DNA from: an uncultured delta proteobacterium
GTDB taxonomy: Bacteria > Desulfobacterota > Desulfomonilia > UBA1062
Reading direction: 5' to 3'
DNA: 19,544 nucleotides
Assembly: GCA_963798485.1 (NCBI GenBank)
Contig: CAWCTR010000011.1
Location: 1-19,544, forward strand
The notes beneath the pieces were generated by a model. The model did not search any database, was not told where the DNA came from, and worked only from the letters and a program-made list of their open reading frames with translations. Below, one piece after another: positions 1-19,245 of this stretch (position 1 is the first letter of the stretch; each line of letters begins with the position of its first letter). Made by a program: the position numbers and the translations under genes.

Positions 1-36
1 GGGGAACGGGGCGGTAACGCCCCCGACCTACCTGGT
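1..36 (+). mobile_element. Probable 3' end (domain VI) of a group II intron, truncated by the window edge
   Basis: GGGG-AAC-GGGGCG-GTAA-CGCCCC-CGA-CCTACC-TGGT: GNRA-capped stem with a bulged A (position 30) in CCT-A-CC a few nt before the putative end, typical of bacterial group II intron DVI. DV and the RT ORF would lie upstream of the window. Confidence 0.6.
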
Positions 37-54
37 CTTGCATATTCGCAAATA

Positions 55-83
55 TTGCATATTAATATGAAATAAGATATTTT
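55..83 (+). promoter_or_regulatory. Putative sigma70 promoter of hicBA-1 with a palindrome in the spacer
   Basis: TTGCAT (55-60), 17 bp, TATTTT (78-83); perfect palindrome CATATTAATATG at 58-69. Confidence 0.45.
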
Positions 84-101
84 CGGGTCGCGGAGGACAA
101 A

Positions 102-305
102 ATGAATCTCAAGGTAGTTCTCGAACCGAGTGATGAGGGCGGCTACACGGCATTTGTTCCTTCTCTGCCTGGTTGTATAAGTGAAGGTAACACTAAAGAA
201 GAGACTCTTAAAAATATCAGAGAGGCAATTGAACTGTATCTTGAAGAAGTCGAAGACGATTCAGTGATCGGCCCCAAAGCTGAAATAGTCAAAGTTGCAG
301 TATGA
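102..305 (+). CDS. hicB: HicB-family antitoxin (short form, no C-terminal DNA-binding domain)
   Basis: GGYTAFVPSLPGCISEGNTKEETLKNIREAIELYLE is the HicB partial RNase H fold signature; GGAGG RBS. Confidence 0.92.
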   Translation: MNLKVVLEPSDEGGYTAFVPSLPGCISEGNTKEETLKNIREAIELYLEEVEDDSVIGPKAEIVKVAV

Positions 306-529
306 CAAAGATACCCAGTGTATCTTACCAGGATCTCATACACGCTCTTCAAAGAGACGGTTGGGTTGTCGTCAGACAAAAGGGAAGTCACATCAGATTA
401 CAAAAACATACAGCTAGAGAAACTCTGAAAATCACAATCCCTGCTCATCATCCCATAAAAAGATCTACGCTCTCTCATATTCTTAAACAAGCTAATTTGA
501 CAGTTGAAGGTTTCAATAATCTATTATGA
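302..529 (+). CDS. hicA: HicA-family toxin (mRNA interferase)
   Basis: L...GW...RQKGSH motif and IP.H...IKRSTLSHILKQA; ATGA overlap with hicB. Confidence 0.92.
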   Translation: MTKIPSVSYQDLIHALQRDGWVVVRQKGSHIRLQKHTARETLKITIPAHHPIKRSTLSHILKQANLTVEGFNNLL

Positions 530-533
530 AACG

Positions 534-717
534 TGCCAACCAGCAAATCCAGCGGACCGCAAACAGCGTTCGGGCTTTCCGCAGTTCCAGCCCCGCTTCA
601 CATTGGGTGGCACATCTTGTCTTAGTGGCCCGCTATGTTTGCGCCCGCTGATCCGCACGATAAGCGGACCGCTCGCTAGCGCTCGCTTGACCTTCGGTCA
701 TCCGCTTATCGGTCGCC
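534..717 (+). repeat. attC-1 (long type) with a 52-bp hairpin inserted before a degenerate R' core
   Basis: R'' TGCCAAC 534-540; arms CAGCGGACCGCAAACAGCG / CGCTATGTTTGCGCCCGCTG; after CCGCAC comes GATAAGCGGA...TCCGCTTATC (659-710) instead of GTT. Confidence 0.85.
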
Positions 718-765
718 TCCATAAAATACATTTCATTCTAAAACCTTAATGACCAGTTGCACCCA

Positions 766-804
766 TTGACAGATAGACTAGTTATACGTATAGTGCACGT
801 ATAA
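766..804 (+). promoter_or_regulatory. sigma70 promoter and operator of the MazEF-like cassette
   Basis: TTGACA (766-771), 17 bp, TATAGT (789-794); inverted repeat TTATACGT (782-789)/ACGTATAA (797-804) straddles the -10; AAGGAGGT RBS follows. Confidence 0.8.
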
Positions 805-816
805 GGAGGTGCCGCC

Positions 817-1047
817 ATGCAGAAAAAACTGACCATAACGGTTGACGAGGAAGTTTACGAGGGACTCCGTAAAACAATAGGCCCTCGCAAAATAAGTAAA
901 TTCGTTCAAGAACTAGTCCGTCCACACGTAGTGCGCCCAAATCTCGATTCGGATTATGCTGAAATGGCAAAGGACAAAAAAAGGGAAAAGGAAGCCATGG
1001 AATGGGCCGAGACAACTTTCAAGGACATTGCCCATGAAACGGCGTGA
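817..1047 (+). CDS. Putative antitoxin (RHH/CopG-like N-terminus) of a PemK/MazF module
   Basis: KKLTITVDEEVYEGL...ISKFVQELV beta-helix-helix pattern with an acidic C-terminus; overlaps the toxin start. Confidence 0.8.
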   Translation: MQKKLTITVDEEVYEGLRKTIGPRKISKFVQELVRPHVVRPNLDSDYAEMAKDKKREKEAMEWAETTFKDIAHETA

Positions 1048-1357
1048 GGTCTGGTGGGTTAATTTTGATCCTTCCATAGGGGGAGAAATACAGAAAAAAC
1101 GTCCGGCTGTCATCGTCAGCAATGATGCATCAAACAAGTTCCTCAATCGAGTTCAAGTTGTCCCTCTGACGAGCAAGACTGATCGCCTCTATCCCAGTGA
1201 GGCATTGGTGGTCTTGGATGGTAAAGAGAGCAAGGCCATGACGGATCAGTTAGCGACTGTTAGTAAGCTGCGGCTTTTTAAACGAGTCGGAATTCTTTCT
1301 CAAGAAGATATGAGTAGAATTGAGGAGGCCATCAAGATACAGCTTGGTATTCATTAG
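1034..1357 (+). CDS. mazF: PemK/MazF-family endoribonuclease toxin
   Basis: RREVWWVNFDPSIGGEIQKKRPAVIVSND...VVPLTS...DQLATVSKLRL; start reassigned to ATG 1034 (107 aa). Confidence 0.93.
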   Translation: MKRREVWWVNFDPSIGGEIQKKRPAVIVSNDASNKFLNRVQVVPLTSKTDRLYPSEALVVLDGKESKAMTDQLATVSKLRLFKRVGILSQEDMSRIEEAIKIQLGIH

Positions 1358-1361
1358 AAAT

Positions 1362-1468
1362 AGGCCAAGCAAATCCAGCGGACGGCTTGCAGCCGCCGCT
1401 GATCCGCACGATAAGCGGACCGCTCGCTAGCGCTCGCTTGACCTTCGGTCATCCGCTTATCGGTCGCT
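1362..1468 (+). repeat. attC-2 with a damaged R'' and the same 52-bp hairpin insertion
   Basis: GCCAA-GCAAATCCAGCGGAC lacks 3 nt relative to GCCAACCAGCAAATCC of attC-1; 1396-1467 is identical to 645-716 (72 bp). Confidence 0.85.
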
Positions 1469-1492
1469 GTTGAGCTTCGCTCTAAATTGGAG

Positions 1493-1521
1493 GTGAAGCA
1501 ATTCTTCATTTATGTTATCAT
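1493..1521 (+). promoter_or_regulatory. Putative extended -10 promoter and operator of hicBA-2
   Basis: TGnTATCAT (1513-1521); palindrome TGAAG-CAATT-CTTCA at 1494-1508. Confidence 0.4.
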
Positions 1522-1542
1522 GTAATTTAGAGGGTTATAGAG

Positions 1543-1752
1543 ATGACTAGAGAGTTCAGCGTAGTTATTGAAAAAGATGAGGACGGGTACTTTGTTGCTT
1601 CTGTTCCCTCTTTGCGAGGGTGTCATACGCAAGCAAAATCACTTGATATACTCATGAAAAGAGTTAAAGAGGCAATTGAACTCTGTCTTGAAGTGGAAGA
1701 ACCAGCACAAACCGAATTCATCGGTGTTCAACGCGTGGCGGTCAATGCTTGA
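1543..1752 (+). CDS. hicB: HicB-family antitoxin (short form)
   Basis: FSVVIEKDEDGYFVASVPSLRGCHTQAKSLD.L..RVKEAIELCLE. Confidence 0.92.
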   Translation: MTREFSVVIEKDEDGYFVASVPSLRGCHTQAKSLDILMKRVKEAIELCLEVEEPAQTEFIGVQRVAVNA

Positions 1753-1973
1753 GTACCCTTCCTGCTGTAACAGGTAATCGTCTCATCAAAGCCCTTAAGA
1801 AATTGGGCTTTGATGTTGTTCGCACAAAGGGCAGCCATCATTTCCTCAAACACCCAGATGGCAGATGCACAGTAGTTCCTTTACACACAGGTGAGAATAT
1901 AGGTCGAGGGCTTATGGCTCAGATAATGCGTGATTGTGAGATAACCGCAGAAGATTTGAAGAAAGTCCTATAG
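1749..1973 (+). CDS. hicA: HicA-family toxin
   Basis: LIKALKKLGFDVVRTKGSHHFLKHPDGRCTVVPLH...IGRGL; TTG start overlapping the hicB stop. Confidence 0.92.
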   Translation: MSTLPAVTGNRLIKALKKLGFDVVRTKGSHHFLKHPDGRCTVVPLHTGENIGRGLMAQIMRDCEITAEDLKKVL

Positions 1974-2067
1974 CGATCAAGCCAATCAAGCGGACCACTG
2001 GGGCCGCTCGGCCTTGCATAACTTAACGCACACCTGTCCCCAGTGGCCGCTTATCCGCACGTTCAGT
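1972..2067 (+). repeat. attC-3 (R'' core ATC instead of AAC)
   Basis: AGCGATC...AAGCGGAC-CACTGGG / CCCAGTG-GCCGCTT-ATCCGCAC-GTTCAGT. Confidence 0.85.
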
Positions 2068-2122
2068 TTCAGCTTGTTACATATTGCAGAATGCATTTTG
2101 TTCGAGTAATCTAACATCCATC

Positions 2123-2377
2123 ATGAGCCAAATTGAGAAATTGATATTCCAGATTCTGAGCGGTGCATCTGATACGAACATAGCATTTAGAGATCTATGT
2201 CAGCTTCTTATTCATCTTGGTTTTGAAGAAAGAACAAAAGGAAGCCATCATATGTTTAGGAAGTCTGGTATTGAAGAGAAGATAAACCTACAAAAGGATG
2301 GGAATAAAGCAAAGCCTTATCAAGTTAAACAAGCCCGGGCCGTTATTCTTAAATATAAGCTTGGTGGAGAAAAGTGA
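2123..2377 (+). CDS. hicA: HicA-family toxin (HicA-before-HicB arrangement)
   Basis: NIAFRDLCQLLIHLGFEERTKGSHHMF...INLQKDGNKAKPYQVKQ; start reassigned to ATG 2123, downstream of a TTGCAG-17-TAATCT promoter (2084-2112). Confidence 0.88.
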   Translation: MSQIEKLIFQILSGASDTNIAFRDLCQLLIHLGFEERTKGSHHMFRKSGIEEKINLQKDGNKAKPYQVKQARAVILKYKLGGEK

Positions 2378-2589
2378 TGGACAGATACGAGGTAATTATC
2401 TATTGGAGCGATGAGGACCAGGCATATGTTGCAGAAGTACCTGAACTGCCAGGTTGCTCTGCGCATGGTGAAACGTACGAATCTGCTTTATCAAATGCCA
2501 AGCAAGCAATAGCTCTCTGGATTGAAACAGCAAAAGAATTCAATGATCCAATCCCTTCCCCAAAGGGTCGTCGTCTCGCCTACGCATAG
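2374..2589 (+). CDS. hicB: HicB-family antitoxin (short form)
   Basis: YEVIIYWSDEDQAYVAEVPELPGCSAHGETYESAL...AIALWIE...PIPSP; start is GTG 2374 or ATG 2377. Confidence 0.92.
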   Translation: MMDRYEVIIYWSDEDQAYVAEVPELPGCSAHGETYESALSNAKQAIALWIETAKEFNDPIPSPKGRRLAYA

Positions 2590-2596
2590 CTAAAAA

Positions 2597-2653
2597 ACCG
2601 AACCAGCAAATCCAGCGGACGGCTTTCAGCCGCCGGTGATGCCTACGTTGGCT
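2597..2653 (+). repeat. attC-4 (both cores intact)
   Basis: ACCGAAC-CAGCAAATCCAGCGGACGGCT-TTC-AGCCGCCGGTGATGCCTAC-GTTGGCT; near-identical to attC-2 without the insertion. Confidence 0.9.
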
Positions 2654-2667
2654 TCATGATGGAGTAA

Positions 2668-2928
2668 GTGATGAACAAATCAAAACACATACTAAAAGCG
2701 TCAATTCTTGAAATTGTTAACAAACAACTCAAGGCAGGTGATCCACCTGAAACAAGGCAAACCTTCAATCGTTTAATCGGTGAGGGAATATCAGAAGCAG
2801 ATGCAAAAATATATATTGGACAAGCCGTTGCCGTAGAAATATTCAACGTGATGAAACATAATGAGAGCTTTAATCTGGATAGGTATCGCAAAAACTTGTC
2901 GCGTCTTCCAGAAGAGCCATATGAGTAA
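2668..2928 (+). CDS. Small helical hypothetical protein (weak resemblance to DUF1841-like proteins)
   Basis: Single ORF filling the cassette, GGAG RBS; ILEIV..QL...DPPET..T..RL..EG motif. Confidence 0.75.
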   Translation: MMNKSKHILKASILEIVNKQLKAGDPPETRQTFNRLIGEGISEADAKIYIGQAVAVEIFNVMKHNESFNLDRYRKNLSRLPEEPYE

Positions 2929-2929
2929 C

Positions 2930-2989
2930 AGCCAACACATGCAGACCGACGCGGGCTGCCGCCCGCGCGGCTGATGCGCAGCGTTCGGC
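2930..2989 (+). repeat. attC-5
   Basis: AGCCAAC...CAGACCGACGCGGGC-TGCC-GCCCGCGCGGCTGATGCGCAGC-GTTCGGC; the R''-L'' spacer looks shortened. Confidence 0.85.
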
Positions 2990-3025
2990 TCTCAAGTTTA
3001 TGGATATGCAACAATAACATGACGG

Positions 3026-3054
3026 TTGTAAGATTACTTATTGAATAGTATAGT
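3026..3054 (+). promoter_or_regulatory. sigma70 promoter, probably giving a leaderless transcript
   Basis: TTGTAA (3026-31), 17 bp, TATAGT (3049-54); ATG 3062 lies 7 nt after the -10, with no SD sequence. Confidence 0.6.
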
Positions 3055-3061
3055 TTTTAAT

Positions 3062-3256
3062 ATGTATAGAACTGAAATTAAAAAAGCTGTAACCAAGGTA
3101 AGCTTAAAGAATCAGCCTAGCGATTTCGCATATTGGAATTCAAAACCATACTCAACACGACTCGACGCCCTTGAACAAATCCGGCAGGAGTACCATCGAT
3201 GGAGGTACGGTGCTGAACCGAGACTTCAAAGAGTTTATTCAGTCTTTAAACGATAA
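3062..3256 (+). CDS. Small protein (64 aa), putative antitoxin partner of the nucleotidyltransferase
   Basis: Paralogous to 4575-4757 (D..YW.S.P...R......R..Y...RLQRV..V..R); overlaps the NTase start by 47 nt. Confidence 0.75.
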   Translation: MYRTEIKKAVTKVSLKNQPSDFAYWNSKPYSTRLDALEQIRQEYHRWRYGAEPRLQRVYSVFKR

Positions 3257-3647
3257 CCAAGTTCGTTATTTGGTTGTGGGAGGCTATGCTGTAGCTTTCC
3301 ATGGACATCCTCGTTACACCAAAGATATTGATATCTGGGTTGAAATGACCCAAGAGAATGCAGAGAAAGTTGTCAAATCATTGGAGCAATTTGGCTTTGG
3401 TACTCTTGGATTGAGAGAAGAAGACTTTTTAATTCCTGATCAAATCATACAATTGGGGTATCCGCCCAGTCGTATTGATCTCATAAATACTCTTTCAGGC
3501 GTAGATTTCGCGACTTGCTATACATCACGCGTTCAGATCGATATAGAAGGAGTAATGGTTAATTTCATTGATCTGGAAAATCTCAAAAAGAATAAGCAGG
3601 CATCTGGTCGTCATCAAGATCTGGCAGATATTGAAAGCCTTAAATAA
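3210..3647 (+). CDS. Nucleotidyltransferase-fold protein (DUF6036/AbiEii-like superfamily), 145 aa
   Basis: YLVVGGYAVAFHGHPRYTKDIDIWV (GG...DxD), RID, and C-terminal K..SGR.QDLAD; GTG 3210 preceded by GGAGG. Confidence 0.85.
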   Translation: MLNRDFKEFIQSLNDNQVRYLVVGGYAVAFHGHPRYTKDIDIWVEMTQENAEKVVKSLEQFGFGTLGLREEDFLIPDQIIQLGYPPSRIDLINTLSGVDFATCYTSRVQIDIEGVMVNFIDLENLKKNKQASGRHQDLADIESLK

Positions 3648-3671
3648 CCATTATCAAATACAAGCCGAACA

Positions 3672-3893
3672 CTTCGATCATTCTAAGATCCACTTCCATG
3701 TTTTTCTGTACGCTGGGATCGTCGAACCGCTCTGCAACGCCTTTTCGGTTCTTCGGCTTGGCGATGCGGCCGAGAGGGTCCGGCAGGTTGTACTGGCTTT
3801 TTGTGTTCTGGATATGACCAAAGAGCTCTGCTCTTTTCCTCACCAGATGATTGCGCCGCCTGAGGAGATCTCTGGTGGCTCGCATCTTTGCCG
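3672..3893 (-). pseudogene. Internal fragment of an IS110-family transposase/recombinase
   Basis: MRATRDLLRRRNHLVRKRAELFGHIQNTKSQYNLP...GVAERFDDPSVQKNMEVDL matches the segment after the DEDD domain; no N-terminus or C-terminal domain. Confidence 0.75.
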
Positions 3894-3895
3894 AG

Positions 3896-3960
3896 AAAAA
3901 AGGGGACATCTTGCCTTTTGCCTGCCGGATTATGAAAAGCAAAAAACAAGACCCCTTTAT
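3896..3960. repeat. REP-like imperfect hairpin
   Basis: AAAGGGG-ACA-TCTTG-CC-TTTTGC ... GCAAAA-AA-CAAGA-CCCCTTT. Confidence 0.5.
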
Positions 3961-3993
3961 TTCCTGCGTTGGAGCAAAAAAAGGAGAAAAGAG

Positions 3994-4458
3994 ATGAATA
4001 ATGAGATGAGCAGTGAGAACGCGGCGGCTGTGGTTGATCCGAAACTCGTTGGAATTGGGGGATGGTTGATTTTCCTTTCGATTGGATTGGTGCTTGGCGG
4101 CATCCTATCCATCGTCGGGATAATCATGGGCGTTGCAACATTCGCCAAAGTTGCTGAAGCAGGATATGGCGGATACTTCGGTCTGAATATCGTCATCCAG
4201 ATTGGCATGTTCATTTACTTGATCGTCGCCGCCTCCCGATTTTTCGGAAAGAAGAAGTCCGCCCCCGGCACGATGATTGGGTTGATGGTCGCCGGAATTG
4301 CAACAGGAATCCTCACAACAATGGTCGCGTTTGGTGCAAACGCCGAGGCTTTCGAGGTTGAAGAGATCAAGGCATTGGTAAAACAAGTGATCGGTGCCGC
4401 GATCTGGATTCCATACTTTAGGACCTCCAAGCGTGTCGCCGCTACTTTCACGAACTAA
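3994..4458 (+). CDS. DUF2569-like membrane protein (154 aa)
   Basis: GIGGWLI N-terminal motif, about 4 TM segments, C-terminal IWIPYF..SKRV..TF; AAGGAG RBS at 3981. Confidence 0.85.
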   Translation: MNNEMSSENAAAVVDPKLVGIGGWLIFLSIGLVLGGILSIVGIIMGVATFAKVAEAGYGGYFGLNIVIQIGMFIYLIVAASRFFGKKKSAPGTMIGLMVAGIATGILTTMVAFGANAEAFEVEEIKALVKQVIGAAIWIPYFRTSKRVAATFTN

Positions 4459-4466
4459 ATGACCAA

Positions 4467-4529
4467 TTCCAACCGGGCATTAGAGGTTACGGCTCGCAAG
4501 CTTGCCGGACCTCAATGCCGACGTTCGGC
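4467..4529 (+). repeat. attC-7 (apparently intact)
   Basis: TTCCAAC-CGGGCATT(A)GAGGTTACGGC ... GCCGGACCTC-AATGCCGAC-GTTCGGC, with an extrahelical base in the left arm. Confidence 0.9.
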
Positions 4530-4574
4530 GAAAGAATTGTATCAATATGAATGAGTTCATGATAATCATTAGTT

Positions 4575-4757
4575 ATGATTAAAAAAGTTGTTCGTAAAAG
4601 CAGTCTTCATAATCTCCACTCTGCAAAAGACGATCTCTCGTACTGGTTGAGCCGTCCTGCGGAAGAACGTGTTGCAACCGTCGATTATCTGAGAAAACAA
4701 TATTATGGAAGTACAGAAAGACTTCAAAGAGTTGCTCGAGTTATTCAACGGCCATAA
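4575..4757 (+). CDS. Small protein (60 aa), putative antitoxin partner of the nucleotidyltransferase
   Basis: Paralogue of 3062-3256; preceded by TTGTAT (4537)...GATAAT (4561) with the ATG 8 nt later and no SD sequence. Confidence 0.75.
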   Translation: MIKKVVRKSSLHNLHSAKDDLSYWLSRPAEERVATVDYLRKQYYGSTERLQRVARVIQRP

Positions 4758-5151
4758 AGTTGAATACATGATTGTCGGGGCTTATGCCCTTGCATACTAT
4801 GGAGCTCCACGATTTACCGGTGATATTGATATCTTTGTTCATCCTTCGCCCGAGAACGCACAGAAAATCTTGTCAGCCTTGGCTGATTTTGGTTTTGGAT
4901 CACTAAACTTGAAAGTTGATGACTTTCAGACACCTGATTCTGTACTTCAGCTTGGCGTCCCACCTGTCCGCATTGACATCATTACTTCAATAACAGGAGT
5001 CTCATGGGAAGAAGCGGATAAAGGGAAGAGAGAAGGTCTGTATGGGGATGTCCCTGTGCATTTCCTTGGCCGCGAACAATACATAGCCAATAAACGGGCA
5101 ATCGGCCGGAAAAAAGATCTGGCTGACCTTGAATCACTTGGCGAAGAATAA
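4705..5151 (+). CDS. Nucleotidyltransferase-fold protein, paralogue of 3210-3647
   Basis: YMIVGAYALAYYGAPRFTGDIDIFV...QLGVPPVRIDII...NKRAIGRKKDLAD. Confidence 0.85.
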   Translation: MEVQKDFKELLELFNGHKVEYMIVGAYALAYYGAPRFTGDIDIFVHPSPENAQKILSALADFGFGSLNLKVDDFQTPDSVLQLGVPPVRIDIITSITGVSWEEADKGKREGLYGDVPVHFLGREQYIANKRAIGRKKDLADLESLGEE

Positions 5152-5161
5152 TATGCTGACC

Positions 5162-5215
5162 TTCCAACAAGGCGCTGCACCCGTGCAAGCGCCAGGTCGA
5201 TGGTTTGTGTTATGT
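5162..5215 (+). repeat. attC-8 (degenerate or chimeric)
   Basis: TTCCAAC-AAGGCGCTGCAC left arm and GTTATGT R' (5209); the arms do not pair with each other. Confidence 0.6.
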
Positions 5216-5232
5216 GAAGGAGATGATAAAGT

Positions 5233-5652
5233 ATGAGAGATGCGAGCAAGACAATCGGCAATCTGATCGACAAGGCAAGTGTTTCTATTATCAGTTCCGT
5301 TGATGAAGACGGCTTTCCTAATTCAAAGGCAATGCTTCCCCCTCGGAAAAGGGAAGGTATTAAGCATATCTTCTTCACGACCAATACATCCTCAATGAGG
5401 GTAAGACACTATCTCAATAACCCGAAGGCGTGCGTATATTTCTTTGATAAACGATTCTTCAAAGGCGTTATGCTCAGGGGCGCTATGGAAGTCCTTAATG
5501 ATAGCGCATCCAAGGAAATGATCTGGAAGTCCGGCGACGAAATGTATTATCCAAAGGGGGTAACCGATCCCGATTACTGCGTACTCAGGTTCACGGCTCA
5601 AGATGGAAGGTATTACAGCGATTTCAAATCCGAGAATTTTGACGTTGCATAG
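5233..5652 (+). CDS. Pyridoxamine 5'-phosphate oxidase-like / general stress protein 26 FMN-binding protein
   Basis: ISSVDEDGFPNSKAM...FFTTNTSSMRV....NPKACVYF...YYPKGVTDPDYCVLRF. Confidence 0.88.
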   Translation: MRDASKTIGNLIDKASVSIISSVDEDGFPNSKAMLPPRKREGIKHIFFTTNTSSMRVRHYLNNPKACVYFFDKRFFKGVMLRGAMEVLNDSASKEMIWKSGDEMYYPKGVTDPDYCVLRFTAQDGRYYSDFKSENFDVA

Positions 5653-5666
5653 AGAACCAAACCATC

Positions 5667-5730
5667 ACATAACCCGCGCGTCCGGGCGGACGAGGAGCGG
5701 GTGCCGCACCGCTTATGTTATACGTTGGTC
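5667..5730 (+). repeat. attC-9 (cores intact, arms poorly paired)
   Basis: ACATAAC...GGCGGAC...CCGCTTATGTTATAC-GTTGGTC. Confidence 0.7.
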
Positions 5731-5748
5731 GGCAATAAAGGGGATTAA

Positions 5749-6145
5749 ATGAAGGAGATCGTCTCAAACGCAGAATTGGTGGCATACTGCGGCTTGTATT
5801 GCGGCGCATGCGGATCTTATCTAAGGGACCGATGCCCGGGATGCCATGACAATAAGAAGGCTTCATGGTGCAAGGTTCGGACTCTGTTGTATGGAACATG
5901 ATTACTCTTCCTGCGCCGAATGTGAGGAGTGTATCGAGGCGCGATCATGCAAGAAGTTCAACAACATCATCTCCAAGGTCATCGGCTTTGTCCTTCGATC
6001 CGATCGCACCGCTTGCATTATGCAAATAAAGCAACTGGGAATTCAGGGCCATGCCGATACCATGACAAATCAAAAGAAACAGACAATCAAGAGAGGGACC
6101 GCCCGACAAGGCGCTCCGACGGATGACGGCAAGACGCGCCGCTGA
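5749..6145 (+). pseudogene. DUF3795-like Cys-rich protein, frameshifted near 5884
   Basis: ATG 5749 gives MKEIVSNAELVAYCGLYCGACGSYLRDRCPGCHDNKKASWCKVRT; one extra base, then CCMEHDYSSCAECEE continues in the 5846-6145 frame. Confidence 0.8.
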
Positions 6146-6160
6146 GCTTTGTCATTGATA
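6101..6160 (+). repeat. attC-10 (both cores mutated)
   Basis: GCCCGAC-AAGGCGCTCCGACGGA ... CGCCGCTGAGCTTTGTC-ATTGATA: attC-type arms, but AAC has become GAC and GTT has become ATT. Confidence 0.65.
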
Positions 6161-6600
6161 TGAAGAGCCTGCTTGCCATTGCTTTTGCAACAATAGCCGC
6201 TGTCGGGAATGCCCTGTTCGCCCTCGGACAAAAGAGGTCTGCCGGTGTAGAGAACGGCCTGTTGTTTATCAGCATGTCTGCTCTTGTCGCGGTCTTCCTC
6301 GCCCTTTTCTTTTCACCCCTGGTCGGGGCATTTGATGTAGGGAGCACGTGGAAAGGTAATGAGAGGGCCGTGGTCTTGAGCGGGGTCGGTCTCTTTCTTA
6401 CCTATCTAGGCTTCAATCTTCTCTATGCACGGTACGGCGTATCTCAGTATGTCCTCTATGCCGTGCTGTCCATCATCACAACAACAATTGTTGTAGGCAT
6501 CCTTTGGTTGAAAGAACCGGTCAATGTTTTTCACAAGGTTGCCATTGCATTTGCTATCGCTGCGGTTATCCTTTTTTCAATCGGACAGTCAAAGACATGA
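6160..6600 (+). CDS. DMT/EamA-superfamily small membrane transporter (last cassette, no attC after it)
   Basis: About 5 hydrophobic segments with G...LKEPVN......G/A motif; converges on ispH. Confidence 0.75.
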   Translation: MKSLLAIAFATIAAVGNALFALGQKRSAGVENGLLFISMSALVAVFLALFFSPLVGAFDVGSTWKGNERAVVLSGVGLFLTYLGFNLLYARYGVSQYVLYAVLSIITTTIVVGILWLKEPVNVFHKVAIAFAIAAVILFSIGQSKT

Positions 6601-6616
6601 CAAAAGCCGGCAAAGC

Positions 6617-8245
6617 CTACATCATGGTTGCCAACCACAGCAGGCCCATGGCCGGGACAATGGCCCACAGCCCCATCACGTAGATAGTGTACATCCTGTT
6701 GTCAAAGATGGTTTGCTCCGTATAGAAGTCTATGCCCTTGGCCAGGAAGAACAGCGGCGGCAACAAGCCATAGGCCAGCGCCGGGGCGACCTTCAGGGGG
6801 AAACTCAGAAAGAGCACCAGTGACAGGCCCATGATGGTATATTCCAGCAGCATGGCGGCCTTGTCCTCGTTGATGTACCTGGCAAGGCTCATGCGGCCCA
6901 TAATGGCGTCCTTCTCCATATTCTTGAGCCCCAGCAGGACCTCGGCCGTGAGGTAGTGGGTGGCCACATAGGCCGTAAGCAGGATAATATTGGGTTGGAC
7001 CACGGTGCGGGTGAGGATCAACGGCACCACGATTGCTATCAGGATGAAAATGGCAGCGCCCAAGATGCTCTTGAGGTAATCCTGCACCCCGGCTACATCC
7101 ACCAGGGGACGCAGCAGCGAGGCGCCGACGATTACAAGGGCTCCGGTCAATTCATTCGAGATAAGACTGATCGAAATGGCAATGCCCGTGGAAATGGCCC
7201 ATGTAGGCCACTGCCTCGGCCTCATGGTGCGCGCCGTTGATGAGAATGCCAGGAAGAAAACGGCAAGCAGCACGTCCCACCGGTATGTCTGGCCGCAGAA
7301 TACAAGCGCCACCATGGCTGCGCCGAGGCAACCCAGCGAGGGCATGAGCGGTGACTCGGCAAAGGCGTCCAGCATGGCGTTCTCGATGCCGGATGATGCG
7401 TGAATGCTCTTGAGCGCATCGATGCATTCCTCGATTACCCAGTGAGGCGTTGACGCGCCTGCTATGACCGCGATCTTGTTCATCCGGGAGCGGTTGATGT
7501 CCTTGAGCTGATCAGGTGATTCGATCTTGATGACATAGCGGTTTTCTTTGGCCGCGATCTCTGCCAGACGTTTGGTGTTGGCCGATGTCCTGCCGCCGAT
7601 GACGATGAAGGTGTCATGGTCTTTCGCGAGGTCCATCACCTCGCTCTGCCGGTCCACGGTGGAACGGCAGATGGTGTCCGACACGTCCAGGATCTCAGCC
7701 TTTTCGCGGAGTATATCGATGACTTCCTTATAAAGGGCCACATCAAAGGTGGTCTGCGCCACTACGGCAAGCCTCTTCACACGGGGGACCTTTTGTGCGT
7801 CGGCAACGGTCTGGATGATGACCCCCTTGCTGCCTGCCACACCCATATGGGCGTCCATCTCAGGGTGGTCCTTGTCACCCACTATGGCGATGAGATCTGC
7901 GGTCTTTGCGGCCTTCTTGATAACCGTATGCAGCTTGAGCACCATGGGGCATGCAGCGTCGATGACCTCCACGCCGCGGTCCGTCAGGGCCGCCTTCTTA
8001 TCGGGTGAGATGCCGTGGGCGCGCACGATGGCGATGTCGCCTGGCCTCAGCTTCGGGTCGTTGATGTCGTGGACGATCCCTATTCCCCGCTTGGTAAGCG
8101 CCTCAATGACCTGGGGGTTGTGGATGATCTGCCCGAGTGTGTATATCTTCTTACCGGGATCTTTCTGCCGCACCTTGAAGGTGATGTCGATGGCCCTGCG
8201 GACACCGAAGCAGAACCCTGCATGGCGCGCGATGGTTATCTTCAT
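6617..8245 (-). CDS. ispH: 4-hydroxy-3-methylbut-2-enyl diphosphate reductase fused to a C-terminal polytopic membrane (UbiA-like) domain
   Basis: AGFCFGV, IIHN, RAHG, DAACP, HPE, QTT, TIC, SANT and AGASTP within the first ~280 aa; the rest is multi-TM. Confidence 0.92.
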   Translation of the reverse strand: MKITIARHAGFCFGVRRAIDITFKVRQKDPGKKIYTLGQIIHNPQVIEALTKRGIGIVHDINDPKLRPGDIAIVRAHGISPDKKAALTDRGVEVIDAACPMVLKLHTVIKKAAKTADLIAIVGDKDHPEMDAHMGVAGSKGVIIQTVADAQKVPRVKRLAVVAQTTFDVALYKEVIDILREKAEILDVSDTICRSTVDRQSEVMDLAKDHDTFIVIGGRTSANTKRLAEIAAKENRYVIKIESPDQLKDINRSRMNKIAVIAGASTPHWVIEECIDALKSIHASSGIENAMLDAFAESPLMPSLGCLGAAMVALVFCGQTYRWDVLLAVFFLAFSSTARTMRPRQWPTWAISTGIAISISLISNELTGALVIVGASLLRPLVDVAGVQDYLKSILGAAIFILIAIVVPLILTRTVVQPNIILLTAYVATHYLTAEVLLGLKNMEKDAIMGRMSLARYINEDKAAMLLEYTIMGLSLVLFLSFPLKVAPALAYGLLPPLFFLAKGIDFYTEQTIFDNRMYTIYVMGLWAIVPAMGLLWLATMM

Positions 8246-8979
8246 TGCAAGGCCCTTTTCATTGCATGGATAAGATATTCCTGGTTTCCTTTAGCCCCCT
8301 TGACCGGAGAGGGGATAACCCCGTCCACGTCCAAGGCCAGGCCGGAAAGAAAGGAACCGATACCGGTGATGACCGATTCACGGACAACCGGGTCACGGAT
8401 CACGCCGCCCTTGCCCACCTGGTCCCGGCCGGCCTCGAACTGGGGCTTGATGAGCGCTATGAGGTGCGCATTGTCCTTCAGGAGGTTCAGCACCGGCGGT
8501 ATGACAAGCCTTAAAGAGATGAACGACACGTCAAAGGTAGCCATGTCGCACAGCTCGGGTACATGCCCGCGGCTGATCATGCGTGCATTGATGCCCTCCA
8601 GGCATATTACCCGCGGATCTTTCCTGAGCCTCCAGTGGAGCTGGCCGTGGCCGACATCCACGGCATACACCTTCTGTGCGCCCCTTTTCAGCATGAGCTC
8701 GGTGAAACCCCCGGTGGACGAGCCTACATCTAGGGCGACCATGCCCTGAACCTCCACGGAAAATGCATCCAGGGCGGCTTCCAACTTCAGTGCGCCCCTG
8801 CTTACGAAGGGGTTGCCGGCCTTTATGGATAGGGGGGAATCATCGTCGATAGCGCTCCCGGCCTTGGTCACGGGCTGTCCGTCCACCAGGACCTGGCCTG
8901 CCATGATGAGGCCAAGGGCCTTGGAGCGGGTCTCAACAAGCCCCTTGTCCACCAGAAGCTTGTCCAGGCGCACTTTCAT
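8242..8979 (-). CDS. tlyA: TlyA-family rRNA 2'-O-methyltransferase
   Basis: S4 domain RLDKLLV; FVSRGALKL; LDVGSSTGGFT; DVSFISL; LIKPQFE; GNQEY. Confidence 0.95.
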   Translation of the reverse strand: MKVRLDKLLVDKGLVETRSKALGLIMAGQVLVDGQPVTKAGSAIDDDSPLSIKAGNPFVSRGALKLEAALDAFSVEVQGMVALDVGSSTGGFTELMLKRGAQKVYAVDVGHGQLHWRLRKDPRVICLEGINARMISRGHVPELCDMATFDVSFISLRLVIPPVLNLLKDNAHLIALIKPQFEAGRDQVGKGGVIRDPVVRESVITGIGSFLSGLALDVDGVIPSPVKGAKGNQEYLIHAMKRALQ

Positions 8980-10823
8980 AGGATATCCCTGACTGCCTTG
9001 TGAATGCCTTGTGCATCCAGTCCCACGATCTTCTTGAGATCGCTCAATGATCCATGCTCGATGAACCTGTCGGGGATGCCTACGAGCCTGAACTTAAGGG
9101 GTATACCAATGTCCTGCAGCGCCTCGAGTATGGCAGAGCCGATGCCCCCATGGATACACCCGTCCTCCACCACGACAAACCTGCCACTACAGGAGATCAC
9201 CTGCTCCCTGATGGTTTTGACATCCATGGGTTTGGCAAAAATAAGGTCAACCACCGCCACATCATCCAGGTCGCTGGCAGCCTCCAGCGCCGTATAACAC
9301 AGCGGACCCGCGCAGAATACCACCGCGTGGCCGCCTTTTTTCAGAATCTCGGACCTTCCCAGCTTCAATCGCGCAGGCTTGATGGGATTGGGGACAATCT
9401 TATCCCTGGGGTACCTGATGGCTACAGGCCTGTGGAGGCTTAAGCCGTATTCGAGCATCTTCTCCAGCATGATCTGGTCCCGAGGCGCCATGATGGCCAT
9501 GTTGGGTATGCTCCGCAGGTAGGCAAGGTCAAAGGTGCCATGATGGGTGGGGCCGTCAGCGCCTACAAGACCTGCCCGGTCGACGGCAAAGATGACCGGT
9601 GCGTTCTGCAGTGCCACATCGTGGATGATGGAGTCAAAGCCGCGCTGAAGGAAGGTTGAATAGATAGCCACCACCGGCCTCAGTCCGAACAGGGCCATGG
9701 CTGCAGCCATGGTTACGGCATGGCCTTCTGCAATGCCGACATCATAGAAGCGTTCAGGGTAGCGCCTGGCGAATTCCTTCAGCCCTGTGCCCGTGGTCAT
9801 GGCCGCACTCAGTGCAATGATGCGCGGGTCCCTCTTGGCAAGCTTTATAAGCGAATCGCCAAAGACGTCCGAATAAGTCGGCTCAGCGGGAGCCTTGGGA
9901 CCGTCACCATTTTCAAGATCGAACTTGCCCACGCCATGGTAGTGCTCGGGGTCCTTCACTGCCGGATGGTATCCGCGCCCTTTCTGGGTGATAATGTGGA
10001 GAAAGATGGGCTCTTCCATAGTGGCGATATTCTGGAATGCCTCCACGAGGTGCGCCATGTTGTGCCCGTCGATGGGGCCCACATACCTGAATCCCATCTC
10101 CTCGAAGAGCAGCCCCTCCGTCACCACGCCTTTGAGGTTCCCCTCGATGAGCTTGGCTGCCCTGTAGATGGCGTTGCCCCCCATAGGAATGCGCTTCAAC
10201 GTGTGCTTGATCCCCTCCTTTACTTCCCGGACACGTTTTGAGGTCATGATCCTGCTCAAATAGTCCGCCACGGCGCCGACCCGCTTGGAGATGAACATGG
10301 TATTGTCGTTCAAGACCACGATGAGGTTCTGTTTCCTCATGCCCACAAAGTTCAGACCTTCGAAGGTGAGTCCGTTGGACAGTGACCCATCGCCGATAAC
10401 CGCTATCACGCGGTTTTTGCTCTCGGCCGTTCGGAGAGTCTCGCAGATGCCGCTGGCGGCAGGCAGGGCATTACCGGTATGGCCTGAGATGAAGGCATCA
10501 TAAGGGCTTTCGGCAGGATTCATGAATGGGCACAGGCCGCCATGCTGGCGCAGGGTGTGAAAGGCATCCCTCCTGCCCGTTATGATCTTATGCGTATACC
10601 CCTGATGACCCACGTCCCACAGGATCTTGTCCAGAGGCGAGTTGAACACATAGTGCATGGCAAGGGTGAGTTCCACGGTCCCGAGGCTTGATGCAAGGTG
10701 TCCCCCTGTTTTGCTCACGCTCTCGATTATAAACTCCCTTATCTCATGGGCCAGGGTCTCAAGCTGGCCGATGCCGAGCCCCTTAAGGTCTGTTGGTGAT
10801 GAGATGGTCTGAAGTATATCCAT
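8976..10823 (-). CDS. dxs: 1-deoxy-D-xylulose-5-phosphate synthase
   Basis: GGHLASSLG, WDVGHQGY.HK, GDG...N, DVGIAEGHAV, DGPTHHG, IRYPR; start reassigned to ATG 10823, just after the ispA stop. Confidence 0.97.
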   Translation of the reverse strand: MDILQTISSPTDLKGLGIGQLETLAHEIREFIIESVSKTGGHLASSLGTVELTLAMHYVFNSPLDKILWDVGHQGYTHKIITGRRDAFHTLRQHGGLCPFMNPAESPYDAFISGHTGNALPAASGICETLRTAESKNRVIAVIGDGSLSNGLTFEGLNFVGMRKQNLIVVLNDNTMFISKRVGAVADYLSRIMTSKRVREVKEGIKHTLKRIPMGGNAIYRAAKLIEGNLKGVVTEGLLFEEMGFRYVGPIDGHNMAHLVEAFQNIATMEEPIFLHIITQKGRGYHPAVKDPEHYHGVGKFDLENGDGPKAPAEPTYSDVFGDSLIKLAKRDPRIIALSAAMTTGTGLKEFARRYPERFYDVGIAEGHAVTMAAAMALFGLRPVVAIYSTFLQRGFDSIIHDVALQNAPVIFAVDRAGLVGADGPTHHGTFDLAYLRSIPNMAIMAPRDQIMLEKMLEYGLSLHRPVAIRYPRDKIVPNPIKPARLKLGRSEILKKGGHAVVFCAGPLCYTALEAASDLDDVAVVDLIFAKPMDVKTIREQVISCSGRFVVVEDGCIHGGIGSAILEALQDIGIPLKFRLVGIPDRFIEHGSLSDLKKIVGLDAQGIHKAVRDIL

Positions 10824-10825
10824 GG

Positions 10826-11704
10826 TCACATTACCCGCTTGAGCATCCACAAGGCCAGCCCTTTCAGGTTCTCCGCCTTATCCGGGCGTATGCCATCAAG
10901 CGACTCTATGGCCCTAAGGGTAGCGGCTTGCGCCCATGAGCGCGCTGCATCGATGCCAAGGGCCTTCACCACGGTAGCCTTGTTCTGGGCCAGGTCTTTC
11001 CCTGCGCTCTTGCCCAGTGTTTCTCTGTCGGATGTTATATCCAGGATGTCGTCAATGGCCTGGAATGCGAGTCCGAGGTGCGTGCCGAAACCGGCCAGGG
11101 ACTTGGTCAGGACGTCGTCATCGCAGGCAACCCTCGCACCTGCATACATGCACAGCTCGAAGAGGCGCGAGGTCTTCCGGGTATAGATCTCTTCAATCTT
11201 AGAGGGTGACAAGTCCTTGCCCTCGGCCATCACATCCTCATACTCCCCCTGTACCAGCCCCGATGTTCCGCAGATATCGGCAAACGCAGCGCACAGGTCT
11301 ACCTTGACCTGCGACGGATACCGGCTTGTGCAGATAACGGACAGGGCCTGGAAGATAAGTGCATCACCGGCCAGGATGGCCGTGGCCTCACCGAACTTCT
11401 TGTGGCACGTGGGCAAGCCCCGTCTCAAGTCGTCATTGTCAAGGGCCGGCAGGTCGTCATGGATGAGGCTGAAGGTGTGGATCATCTCGATGGCAAGCCC
11501 TACAGGCAGAGCGGTCCTATCGTGACCTCCTGCGGCCTCGGATGCGAGCATGGCAAGGATGGGTCTGATCCTCTTTCCGCCTGCCTTAAGGCTGTAGGAG
11601 AAGGCCTCGAAAACTCCCGAGCTGCTTTTCGTTTCAAGAAGGTAGCCGGCAAGGTATTCATCAAAGACCTCCTTCTTGGTCGTAATCAATAGGCCAATAT
11701 CCAC
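10826..11704 (-). CDS. ispA: Polyprenyl (farnesyl/geranylgeranyl) diphosphate synthase
   Basis: GGKRIRP, SLIHDDLPALDNDDLRRG (FARM), FQAIDDILD (SARM); canonical ispA-dxs-tlyA order. Confidence 0.95.
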   Translation of the reverse strand: MDIGLLITTKKEVFDEYLAGYLLETKSSSGVFEAFSYSLKAGGKRIRPILAMLASEAAGGHDRTALPVGLAIEMIHTFSLIHDDLPALDNDDLRRGLPTCHKKFGEATAILAGDALIFQALSVICTSRYPSQVKVDLCAAFADICGTSGLVQGEYEDVMAEGKDLSPSKIEEIYTRKTSRLFELCMYAGARVACDDDVLTKSLAGFGTHLGLAFQAIDDILDITSDRETLGKSAGKDLAQNKATVVKALGIDAARSWAQAATLRAIESLDGIRPDKAENLKGLALWMLKRVM

Positions 11705-11785
11705 GATTTTACCCCTTTAAAGGCAATACCACGGCCAAAAACAATCTTCAACAGCGTAAAAAGATAACGGAAAGGCTTTTACCCT

Positions 11786-12751
11786 CTATGTCTTTGAGAG
11801 TTCCTCATAGATCTTCATAACGGTGTTCACATAGACGTCGCTGTGGTTGTACAACCATATGGCGCTACGATTCTTTTTTTCATCCCCGTTTTCCCTCCAG
11901 CCTGATTTTGTAAGGAGATTCCCTATGCTGGCAATGGCATCCGACATACTGAAGGGATTTCTTACACCGTCATCATCGCCATCAGCACCCCATTTCATGA
12001 AGGTGGAAGGGATGAATTGCGCCGGACCCATTGCCCCCCCAACGGAGCCCTTGATCTCCTGGGGGTCCAGCCCTAAAGAATCGGCAAGCAGGATCAGGTT
12101 GTAAAGCTCACCTGCCGCCCATCTCCCCCGGGCAAGGGTCTTTTTCACTCCCTCCTCGTCATTAAGAGGGATATCATCCACCCCGGTAAAGTCTTTCATT
12201 TGTGCGAGGATATCCGGGTCGGACAGGAGAGAGATGTTTGCGTAAACATTAAATACGTAGTACTTCTGAGGGTATGTCCCCAACCTGGTTTCGATGATGA
12301 GGATCGCGGTAATGATCTCGGGGGAGATCCCATATTTTTCTTGAACCACGTCAAAGATATGCCTGTTTTCCTCGATGAAGGCCCTGCCCTTGATTATATA
12401 TTTCTTGTCATATTCCATGCATCCGGGGCTTTTAGCAGAGGCCTTTGGGCGTACGAAGTTGAGGTTTTTCTCGATGAATTTTTCATCAAAGACCACCCGG
12501 GGATCAGCAACCATGGCATGTGCCCGGCCCTTGTCAATGCCTTTACTCACCAGCAATTCCTCAACAAAACCTCTTGCATGGGCGTCATTTACCAACCCTT
12601 TACCCGGCAAAGGAGGTAACACGGGCTGTCCGTTTGCCTGGACTTCGGGCTTGGCGGCTGATTCTACCGGAGGCTCCTTGTGCGCGCATGAGCTCATCAG
12701 GCTTAATCCCATGACAAAGATCGTGATGATTATGAATCCATGAGCCTTCAT
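11786..12751 (-). CDS. mltB: MltB-like lytic murein transglycosylase lipoprotein
   Basis: Signal peptide with lipobox LMSSC; YGISPEIITAILIIETRLG; GSVGGAMGPAQFIPST; DGDDDG EF-hand; YNHSDVYV; start reassigned to ATG 12751. Confidence 0.88.
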   Translation of the reverse strand: MKAHGFIIITIFVMGLSLMSSCAHKEPPVESAAKPEVQANGQPVLPPLPGKGLVNDAHARGFVEELLVSKGIDKGRAHAMVADPRVVFDEKFIEKNLNFVRPKASAKSPGCMEYDKKYIIKGRAFIEENRHIFDVVQEKYGISPEIITAILIIETRLGTYPQKYYVFNVYANISLLSDPDILAQMKDFTGVDDIPLNDEEGVKKTLARGRWAAGELYNLILLADSLGLDPQEIKGSVGGAMGPAQFIPSTFMKWGADGDDDGVRNPFSMSDAIASIGNLLTKSGWRENGDEKKNRSAIWLYNHSDVYVNTVMKIYEELSKT

Positions 12752-12853
12752 TGCGAGGGATGCTATATCGATAAAAGATGATTTACAAGTAAAATGCCTC
12801 TGTCCCCAACGCCTGTCTTGACTTGTATGTAGCGGCATCATACAACCACTTCT

Positions 12854-14188: not shown

Positions 14189-14210
14189 ATATAGTTATCA
14201 CGACGAGAAT

Positions 14211-14243
14211 GTAGGTTGGGTTGTCCTGGGGCATAACTTAATA
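14211..14243 (+). repeat. Degenerate GTAG-type REP-like sequence
   Basis: GTAG-GTTGGGTTG...CATAACTTAAT, a weakly pairing stem after a GTAG tetranucleotide. Confidence 0.3.
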
Positions 14244-14251
14244 TTTTTTTA

Positions 14252-14438
14252 TGTACTTTCTTTTGGTGCCAAAAGAAAGTACCAAAGAAAAGGCACCCCG
14301 TGAACCCGCCCTAAAGGGTGCGTTCGCTCGCTTGAAAAATCCGGGCCGCGTCTAAACTCGCTCCGTTTCACTCCGCTCAGACAGACGACGCTTTCCCCCG
14401 GATTTTTCTGCGCTCGCTCACCGGGTTCAAGGGGGGGG
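14252..14438 (+). repeat. Structured ~185-bp repeat, copy 1 (MITE-like or ncRNA-like)
   Basis: GTACTTTCTTTTGG-TG-CCAAAAGAAAGTAC hairpin, CAAAGAAAAGGCACCCCG, long-range stems TGAACCCG/CGGGTTCA and AAAATCC/GGATTTT. Confidence 0.8.
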
Positions 14439-14459
14439 TCAAAGATGAGTCAGCAAACA

Positions 14460-14524
14460 CATTAAAGGCCAGTATCAGAGGTGCGGGCGGCAGCCCGCGG
14501 TCCGTCTGGATGGGCTGGTTGGCT
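14460..14524 (-). repeat. attC of the orphan cassette (R' mutated to TTT)
   Basis: Minus strand: AGCCAAC-CAGCCCATCCAGACGGAC-CGCGGGCTGCCGCCCGC-ACCTCTGATACTGGCC-TTTAATG; a 17-bp core is identical to attC-5 (2950-2966). Confidence 0.8.
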
Positions 14525-14526
14525 GT

Positions 14527-14931: not shown

Positions 14932-14942
14932 ACAGGTTCCTT

Positions 14943-14998
14943 AGACAACAATTACTATACCGAAACCACGAATATGGATATATGTGACTTCGGGATAA
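14943..14998 (-). other. attI-like recombination site
   Basis: Minus strand TTATCCCGAA...TTCGGTATAGTAATT-GTTGTCT; the core GTTGTCT matches 6/7 the complement of the cassette's R'' AGCCAAC; no attC palindrome upstream. Confidence 0.55.
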
Positions 14999-17253: not shown

Positions 17254-17265
17254 CGCAGTACCTTC

Positions 17266-19236: not shown

Positions 19237-19245
19237 GCTCCACTA

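Follow-up and report, generated by a model that had tools for sequence, protein, structure and literature searches.

A duplicated hairpin at attC junctions as a candidate relic of a gene-less, structured integron cassette

The hairpin and its place in the cassette array

The window, meaning the whole 19,544-nucleotide (nt) stretch analysed here (contig CAWCTR010000011.1 of assembly GCA_963798485.1, positions 1 to 19,544), comes from an uncultured delta proteobacterium and carries, close to its start, two identical copies of a 52-nt hairpin, which are the subject of this report. The window begins at base 1 of contig C11 of the metagenome-assembled genome (MAG) G000, which measures 4.3 Mb at 97.5% completeness and 6.96% contamination, and it opens within an integron cassette array. 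The recombination sites (attC) of this array usually follow the order R''(..AAC), spacer, L'', loop, L', spacer (CCGCAC) and R'(GTT..), and ordinary sites of the local family end in CCGCTGATCCGCAC-GTT, as on contig C12 of the same genome (C12:9119–9136); the two sites that precede the hairpins, attC-1 and attC-2, read CCGCTGATCCGCAC-GAT AAGCGG.

Upstream of the first copy lies a HicB/HicA cassette (102–529), identified by the Pfam families HicB_lk_antitox (44.1 bits) and HicA_toxin (62.5 bits). The body of its attC-1 (533–658, plus strand, as are all features described from here to attC-3) has the R'' box GTGCCAAC at 533–540, L'' from 547, and L' with its spacer at 641–658 ending in CCGCAC, behind which there is no GTT. 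Hairpin copy 1 (659–710), in which G659 is the shared crossover G, follows directly and is itself followed by GGTCGC (711–716). Next come a MazEF-type toxin–antitoxin operon (766–1357), with its own promoter (TTGACA-17-TATAGT, 766–794, an 11/12 promoter match), an antitoxin-like open reading frame (ORF; 817–1047, no Pfam hit) and a PemK/MazF toxin (1034–1357; PemK_toxin, 96.3 bits), and the attC-2 body (1363–1409), with a damaged R'', GGCCAAG, and with L' and spacer at 1392–1409, again ending in CCGCAC. Hairpin copy 2 (1410–1461, with G1410 as crossover G) has the same sequence as copy 1; it is followed by GGTCGCTGTTGAGC (1462–1475) and a HicBA-type cassette (1476–2061; HicB-like 1543–1752, HicA 1749–1973), whose attC-3 (1972 to G2061) has the R'' box AGCGATC at 1972–1978, with ATC in place of AAC, and ends in CCGCAC-G|TT, the CCGCAC-GTT lying at 2055–2063. 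The two copies thus flank the mazEF cassette, with the antitoxin-like ORF, the toxin and attC-2 between them, as the original prediction, made from the letters of the window, had stated.

Positions 645–716 and 1396–1467 do not differ over 72 nt and are spaced 751 apart. The 52-mer within them recurs with 0 mismatches, has no other match in the window at up to 3 mismatches, and had a mean of 0.00 chance matches in 200 shuffles. Behind CCGCAC it runs from GATAAGCGGA to TCCGCTTATC, perfect 10-nt terminal inverted repeats that form a basal stem; an inner mini-hairpin, TGACC-TTC-GGTCA, is separated from this stem on one side by a 19-nt loop, CCGCTCGCTAGCGCTCGCT in the window copies, and GGTCGC(C/T) stands directly behind the hairpin at both places. 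The inverted repeats, the inner mini-hairpin, the GGTCGC(C/T) and the CCGCAC-GTT of attC-3 are as originally described. As single-stranded DNA the hairpin folds with -18.9 kcal/mol on the top strand and -19.3 kcal/mol on the bottom strand (z about -3.5). Its boxes are ordered 5'-G(A/T)T...A(T/A)C-3' on both strands, the reverse of the canonical 5'-RYYYAAC...GTTRRRY-3', and judged by box order and by a loop on the C/G side the 52-mer alone does not qualify as a canonical attC. No Logan contig from the probable source run (X1) bridges either hairpin, so that the assembly is neither confirmed nor questioned there.

The point at which the hairpin begins can be located by comparison. Four public runs yielded contigs that agree with attC-2 as far as base 1410 and from there run on with TT... 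into 4 different sequences; the hairpin therefore begins exactly at the crossover, with G|AT replacing G|TT. A third copy in G000 (C12:7693–7744, 2 loop mismatches) lies directly 3' of an integron attI, beside an integron integrase (IntI) that scores 437.4 bits against TIGR02249 (cut-off 265). The integron platforms of contigs C12 and C19 are identical at 1271 of 1292 positions (98.4%), and the shared part ends in ...TTGCACTG (...CTGCTTATTGCACTG); past this junction C12 continues with ATAAGCGG and C19 with TTGGTC, such that C19 is an empty attI allele. A start directly after the R-box G of attI or attC, as is characteristic of the left end of a cassette, is likewise seen in four further loci (L034, L036, L039 and L042). 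G000 encodes three integron integrases above the TIGR02249 cut-off (C5:12795–13733, 459.6 bits; C19:228–1175, 442.1 bits; C12:6524–7471, 437.4 bits).

Terminal inverted repeats of 10 nt with a subterminal hairpin would also suit a miniature non-autonomous transposable element, derived from the IS1111-attC or IS200/IS605 type, that targets att sites with a transposase supplied in trans, and G000 does encode IS110-type DEDD (7 matches) and Y1 (8 matches) transposases. We consider such an element most improbable. The unit is not flanked by a target-site duplication; at both attI and attC, which have little sequence in common, it is inserted precisely at the nucleotide of the IntI crossover; and the right end of the complete element acts as a cassette boundary, as described below. 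A model built from 8 hairpins (R1) recovered only the three copies in G000, and neither it nor BLAST found a further copy or one beside transposase genes. Since these searches and a survey of transposases detected no autonomous partner with the same ends in G000, IntI is favoured over a transposase as the moving enzyme. The attC-targeting miniature element first proposed was right as to position only, and the unit also occupies attI, on the IntI crossover nucleotide, in 4 integrons. IS1111-attC elements and group IIC-attC introns, as presented in the accessible text of PMC11187229 and PMC3001079, are likewise mobile elements specific to attC interiors, but they run to kilobases and carry the gene for a DEDD transposase or a reverse transcriptase; the intron lies between a gene and its attC on the bottom strand. 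The present unit, of 52–232 nt, contains no gene, is placed at the G|TT crossover and also occupies attI.

The intact unit and its relatives

The copy on C12 is part of a larger structure. A second helix, GGTCGCTGTTGAGC...GCTCAACAGCGACC, which encloses two further hairpins, directly adjoins its hairpin, and G|TTCGAT and an ORF come next. Counted from after the left G to the right G, units of this kind measure 208, 225, 232, 231/230 and 221 nt; a short form of 83 nt is without the branched interior, and L059 is another short form. Right ends stand before GTT in the intact and short units of G000 C12, L021, L023, L034, L036 and L059. Loci L038 and L043 have the upstream cassette and the unit in common and part right after G|TT, which indicates that the right end of the unit is a working cassette boundary. 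The basal stem starts with G-A-T in 7 of the 8 aligned copies, paired with A-T-C, and with G-T-T in L034, paired with A-A-C, so that the paired inverse boxes of the unit are ATC/GAT in all but this one copy. One of the enclosed hairpins (hairpin B of C12, CTCTAAC...GTTAGAG) was considered as a canonical attC and rejected, the AAC arm being missing in other members.

This structure bears on GGTCGCT, which had been likened to a broken R' box on the grounds that it matches 6 of 7 positions of GATCGCT, the reverse complement of the AGCGATC at 1972–1978. The match is real, but a broken R' is not supported, since in the intact unit the motif starts the 14-nt helix arm that pairs with AGCGACC, and the next cassette has its native start, TTCGCTC, at 1476. 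Among the identities first offered for the hairpin, a gene-less mini-cassette came nearest; the 52-mer is the 5' module of a 208–232-nt non-coding cassette, truncated in the window. ORF-less cassettes are a kind already known, and the present family is a variant of them. A search of the open-access literature, with supplementary files outside its scope, returned no published description of this hairpin or unit family.

Relatives were collected with exact-pattern scans based on the loop motif, hits being judged true or false by the presence of the hairpin. True copies were found in 3 of 9 stretches from species genomes (L019, which is genome G002; L021; L023) and in 11 of 27 from metagenomes (L033, L034, L036, L037, L038, L039, L042, L043, L047, L051 and L053), the remaining stretches being GC-rich coding DNA without the hairpin. 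R1 added L059, in genome G126 (58.5 bits), as well as another copy in L039, and scored 73.6 bits for copy 1 of the window. It matched 2 of 52 genomes of the order, a patchy distribution. In a loose pattern search of the phylum 13 of 401 genomes matched, the reversed control pattern gave hits too, and R1 confirmed only G126. Once identical loci are collapsed, 13 distinct copies from MAGs and metagenomes remain, which rules out the one-off duplication that had been entertained for the 52-mer. The host lineages are Desulfomonilia- and Syntrophales-type MAGs.

Ten of the 13 copies sit at att junctions. Four lie directly after attI beside an IntI above the cut-off (G000 C12, 437.4 bits; L034/L051, 273.7 bits; L036, 430.7 bits; L039, 425.5 bits), and six behind an attC L' and spacer (the two window copies, L023/L038/L043, the second copy of L039, L042 and L053); G000 and L039 hold several copies in one array. 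The expectation that hits would always follow an attC L' and precede toxin–antitoxin cassettes therefore holds in its first part for 6 of 13 copies only, with 4 at attI and 3 elsewhere, and toxin–antitoxin genes lie downstream of only 2; elsewhere the downstream genes encode an acyltransferase, an ETX/MTX2-like protein or proteins without a Pfam match. The ETX/MTX2- and aerolysin-like ORF of L021 (4812–5954, minus strand) starts about 30 nt past the unit, and upstream of that unit are a c-di-GMP-I riboswitch (6866–6953, minus strand, 81.4 bits) and a cobalamin riboswitch (7093–7370, plus strand, 104.5 bits).

The hairpin structure is conserved. In an alignment of 8 sequences standard pairs occupy 98.4% of cells, 7 of 16 pairs show changes on both sides, and the observed covariation score was reached by 0 of 500 shuffles, with pairing of only 21–44% in controls with slid partner columns. 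The 19-nt loop, CCGCTCGCT-NN-CGCTCGCT, varies in this alignment, whose members were found with a loop pattern, at NN alone. The hairpins are 52, 54 or 55 nt long and differ by indels of 1–3 nt, which is incompatible with a common reading frame; the ORFs that overlap the unit are mechanical ones, and none is conserved. No Rfam family fits in the C12 copy and 7 further loci scanned. The candidate Clostridiales-1 RNA (RF01699) was rejected: it reached 30.8 bits against a gathering score of 48, on the minus strand and in the C12 copy only, and the 7 other loci gave no match to the unit at E<0.1.

Such conservation could mean that the unit is kept for a functional structured RNA or single-stranded DNA signal of benefit to host or integron, for example a small RNA or, next to attI, a signal that modulates expression of the integrase or of cassettes, with the cassette as its vehicle and the window hairpins as dead fragments. 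Beyond the covarying stems and the invariant loop, this explanation can draw on the recurrence of CGCTC(C)GCT motifs in five aligned units of different lineages, where they occupy unpaired stretches of the branched domain, on the 4 of 10 integron copies that are the first unit after attI, on very stable RNA folds of the unit (-120 to -138 kcal/mol), and on the ORF-less cassettes with regulatory RNAs or promoters recorded in the accessible text of PMC8876359. The missing Rfam match speaks against it, as does the result of promoter and terminator scans, which found neither a sigma-70 promoter nor an intrinsic terminator in or beside the C12 unit or either window hairpin, the sole promoter match (766–794) being that of the MazEF-type operon; the terminator activity raised in the original prediction thus finds no counterpart in the sequence. 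Neither wobble counts (G-U against A-C, 22/18 for the top strand and 32/17 for the bottom) nor minimum free energies pick out a strand, orientation relative to the downstream gene is inconsistent outside integrons, and the distribution is patchy. On balance we regard an RNA or single-stranded DNA function as unlikely, if credible. According to the same source, the ORF-less promoter and RNA cassettes resemble the present unit in being non-coding and in that they may act in the first position at attI; they have a classical 3' attC, whereas in the present unit the recombination site and any 'cargo' form one continuous structure with no promoter detected.

The original prediction had allowed that the hairpin might be the ordinary interior of a full-length attC, and this proved half true, in that its arms are similar to the attC-3 L boxes, with identity over 9 nt for AAGCGGACC and likewise for CCGCTTATC. 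It could follow that the hairpin is an attC interior (L''-loop-L') and each window locus a double attC fused by illegitimate recombination. The unit when circularised has indeed the layout 1L-2L-2R-1R of an attC, in the order GCTCAAC-7 nt-GATAAGC...GCTTATC-7 nt-GTTGAGC, the junction arm having a perfect 22–24-nt complement in 4 of 6 distinct units; AAC...GTT flanks the unit in L021 and L059; and in L039 (6840–6997) the branched domain, without the hairpin, is the attC of a coding cassette (ORF 5961–6788; R'' GCCCAAC ... GCTCAACAGCCGCCG|TT), from which it appears that the two modules can separate. Yet no contiguous copy of the circularised layout was seen, all integrated full and short units open at the same place (G000 C12, L021, L023/L038/L043, L034/L051, L036 and L059), 4 copies stand directly after attI, where no first attC is available for fusion, and the helices have no unpaired spacer or extrahelical bases. 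Fusion of two attC sites is, on this evidence, improbable as the origin of the hairpins. One array of L039 holds two 48-nt variant units, G|ATAAGCGGAC...GGTCAGCCGCCG|TT, one at attI (4863–4911) and one behind an attC (5871–5919), which keep both unit ends and have an internal deletion, like a miniature derivative.

Loss of the 3' part in the window copies

Set against the intact units, both copies in the window prove to have lost the unit's 3' part. At copy 2 the 14 nt behind the hairpin (1462–1475) represent the entire 5' arm of the second helix (stem A), as judged from the pairing in the C12 copy, and their 3' partner GCTCAACAGCGACC is gone; at copy 1 the GGTCGC at 711–716 is, by sequence comparison, the sole remnant of this arm. 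Neither copy has a regular right end, copy 2 ending in C1475 and copy 1 being without GTT.

The boundary of copy 2 can be placed with the help of the downstream cassette, whose homologues occur in 12 of 122 genomes of the class, G000 included. In 4 of 8 loci inspected (L097, L099, L100 and L103) the cassette starts G|TT(C/G)GCT(C/T)TAAA..., directly behind another attC in the first three and behind a G in a non-attC context in L103; in L098 the start is A|TT, and in the other 3 loci the alignment begins further in. None of the 8 loci has the hairpin, and none of their genomes matched R1; on the right side of copy 2 these loci are thus empty alleles. As the relatives start at G|TT without the hairpin, the native start of the HicBA-type cassette, TTCGCTCTAAATTGG, corresponds to window position 1476, and the insert at copy 2 is accordingly a 65-nt relic (1411–1475) composed of the hairpin and the whole second-helix 5' arm, and its last base is C1475 instead of the G expected at the end of a cassette. 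In the C12 unit the sequence is ...GTTGAGC-TTCGCTCTAAC..., and this unit shares with the beginning of the HicBA-type cassette a 10-nt repeat, TTCGCTCTAA. A deletion between two such repeats would have removed the 3' part of the unit together with its terminal G and would yield the window sequence exactly. The loose end of run X5 before 1480 had seemed to indicate a second crossover at 1469|1470 (G|TTGAGC), but this resulted from mis-alignment; the X5 sequence, G|TTGACTCTAAATTGG, has its boundary at 1475|1476 as well.

At copy 1 only 6 nt remain beyond the hairpin. Record 9 of X2 diverges left of approximately 723. Relatives of the MazEF-type cassette match in the coding region only, and the search for its native start otherwise returned two paralogous promoter copies in G000, C29:15560–15860 and C22:9300–9600, which are near-identical and carry a 77%-identical version of the promoter region (window 715–801), alignable from about 715. 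Both are preceded by TTGCACT-CCGCTAATGCG, which recalls an att junction together with the hairpin's 3' arm.

The relics are fused as 5' ends to the cassettes now spanning 660–1410 and 1411–2061, which leaves attC-1 and attC-2 without a GTT partner. Two features of the R'' boxes would fit decay and re-adaptation: that of attC-2, which has lost AAC in the window, is 3 bases shorter than in a contig from X3, where CAA after 1365 gives GGCCAAC, and the R'' of attC-3 has ATC in the window and AAC in 5 of 6 relatives. It is only suggestive that this ATC complements the GAT with which the fused cassette 1411–2061 starts. Fused gene cassettes, in the accessible text of PMC8876359, similarly arise when loss of a boundary joins two cassettes, as the relics here are joined to the MazEF-type and HicBA-type cassettes; unlike those, the lost partner here is non-coding, and the break at copy 2 is explained by a 10-nt direct repeat.

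The state of these sites bears on a further possibility, that of a dedicated lock, in which GAT in place of GTT and a competing hairpin prevent excision of neighbouring toxin–antitoxin cassettes. Its appeal lies in the toxin–antitoxin cassettes behind both window copies, the damaged R'' of attC-2, and the single-stranded DNA fold of that site, in which the attC-2 L-box hairpin stands beside the 52-nt hairpin with no R-box pairing; an ordinary attC on C12, paralogous to attC-4, pairs AAC with GTT in such a fold. A lock is nevertheless highly doubtful. IntI1 tolerates GAT according to the accessible text of PMC2811028, intact units end with a working G|TT, only 2 of 13 copies precede toxin–antitoxin genes, and the window copies resemble deletion relics instead of a designed form. 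The lock or insulator function proposed at the outset is not needed to account for the data and found no direct support, and scans of the element detected neither terminator nor promoter.

Movement of the unit, its meaning and the rest of the window

Taken together, the comparisons favour, with a probability of roughly 0.57, the reading that the window hairpins are 3'-truncated relics of a conserved, gene-less and fully structured integron cassette that is moved by IntI through a GAT/ATC core. Such a unit would begin right after the R-box G of the recipient attI or attC, and its first bases (G|ATAAGC, or G|TTAAGT in one relative) would close the hairpin at its base by pairing with GCTTATC, an inverse box within the unit, the invariant 19-nt loop and the mini-hairpin being its only 'cargo'. 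The second helix, usually around a branched domain, would follow, and the unit would end in ...G|TT. The local IntI would insert the folded unit at G|TT sites, using GAT/ATC in place of GTT/AAC, and C1475 would now block separation of the relic from the HicBA-type cassette. For IntI1, the accessible text of PMC2811028 reports that a change at T2 of GTT is tolerated, that T2 to A2 with the complementary change raised recombination between attC and attI1, and that the first nucleotide must match between partner sites. We read the unit mainly as a self-propagating passenger of integrons.

Several observations weigh against this interpretation. A purely selfish cassette leaves the 19-nt invariant loop and the repeated CGCTC(C)GCT motifs unexplained, and both the conservation of the loop and the tallies of copies are biased, since a pattern taken from this very loop served to find the copies. 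The helices of the unit are continuous and perfect; paired inverse boxes exist, but the unit has neither the unpaired spacer in the centre nor the extrahelical bases of a canonical attC. Three of the 13 copies (G002, L021 and L059) lie outside recognisable integrons: that of G002, in whose genome no IntI above the cut-off was found, adjoins a non-IntI Phage_integrase protein of 414 amino acids without an NCBIfam match, that of L059 has housekeeping genes on both sides, one for a U32 peptidase and one that is AIR-synthase-related, and the flank of L021 has no obvious attC. Given the 6.96% contamination of the MAG, C12 and C19 may be strain variants and not paralogues. The boundary between relic and MazEF-type cassette at copy 1 falls somewhere in 711–722, the deletion history of this copy is uncertain, and the ATC/GAT match of the fused HicBA-type cassette comes down to a single base change, in a cassette whose closest relative is 91% identical.

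A more specialized role might tentatively be proposed, in which the unit is a dedicated integron parasite or regulator: its two stacked helices would offer the integrase a symmetrical pair of binding boxes with a GAT/ATC core, and the invariant loop would recruit a host protein, the integrase or a priming function. Were this true, the unit would re-insert preferentially at attI and reshape arrays by fusing or immobilising neighbouring cassettes.

The nearest precedents for a passenger cassette are found in Vibrio, whose chromosomal integrons hold conserved, paralogous non-coding cassettes discussed as selfish or as useful to the integron in the accessible text of Boucher et al. 2006 (PMC1382264). 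As far as that account goes, they share with the present family the absence of genes, the presence of several copies per array and conservation between species. Unlike them, by that description, the present family is far smaller (83–232 nt, relics about 52–65 nt) and helical almost throughout, mostly has GAT/ATC and a 19-nt invariant loop, and often stands first after attI. Chromosomal integron arrays contain a sizeable fraction of non-coding cassettes for which there is no explanation, and a small, strongly structured family that occurs in distant anaerobic lineages and repeatedly at attI offers a tractable model for them. It bears on whether such cassettes are selfish passengers or working parts of the integron, on natural integrases with non-GTT cores and on the origin of cassette fusions; attC-finding pipelines may misplace cassette boundaries where hairpin relics sit.

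The array continues beyond attC-3 with a HicA/HicB cassette (2123–2589, Pfam) and attC-4 (2597–2653, plus strand; R'' ACCGAAC ... R' GTTGGCT), an ordinary short site that served as the reference for the normal layout. A contig from run X1 links position 2985, where attC-5 ends, through an intervening GG to base 37; the first cassette of the window thus also occurs behind attC-5 in that sample, a sign of cassette reshuffling. Small nucleotidyltransferase-like proteins are encoded in two cassettes, at 3171–3647 (DUF6036) and 4705–5151 (DUF2204 and AbiEii-like), each behind a short upstream ORF, and these may be further toxin–antitoxin-type cassettes. Inverted repeats of 55 nt (14246–14300 and 15282–15336), 95% complementary and with each arm palindromic, enclose approximately 1 kb that includes a 134-amino-acid ORF without a Pfam hit (14527–14931, minus strand); the region 14246–15336 may be a small mobile element. 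The window ends in a cluster of at least three tRNA genes (19246–19544), with an apparent fourth beginning at 19515.

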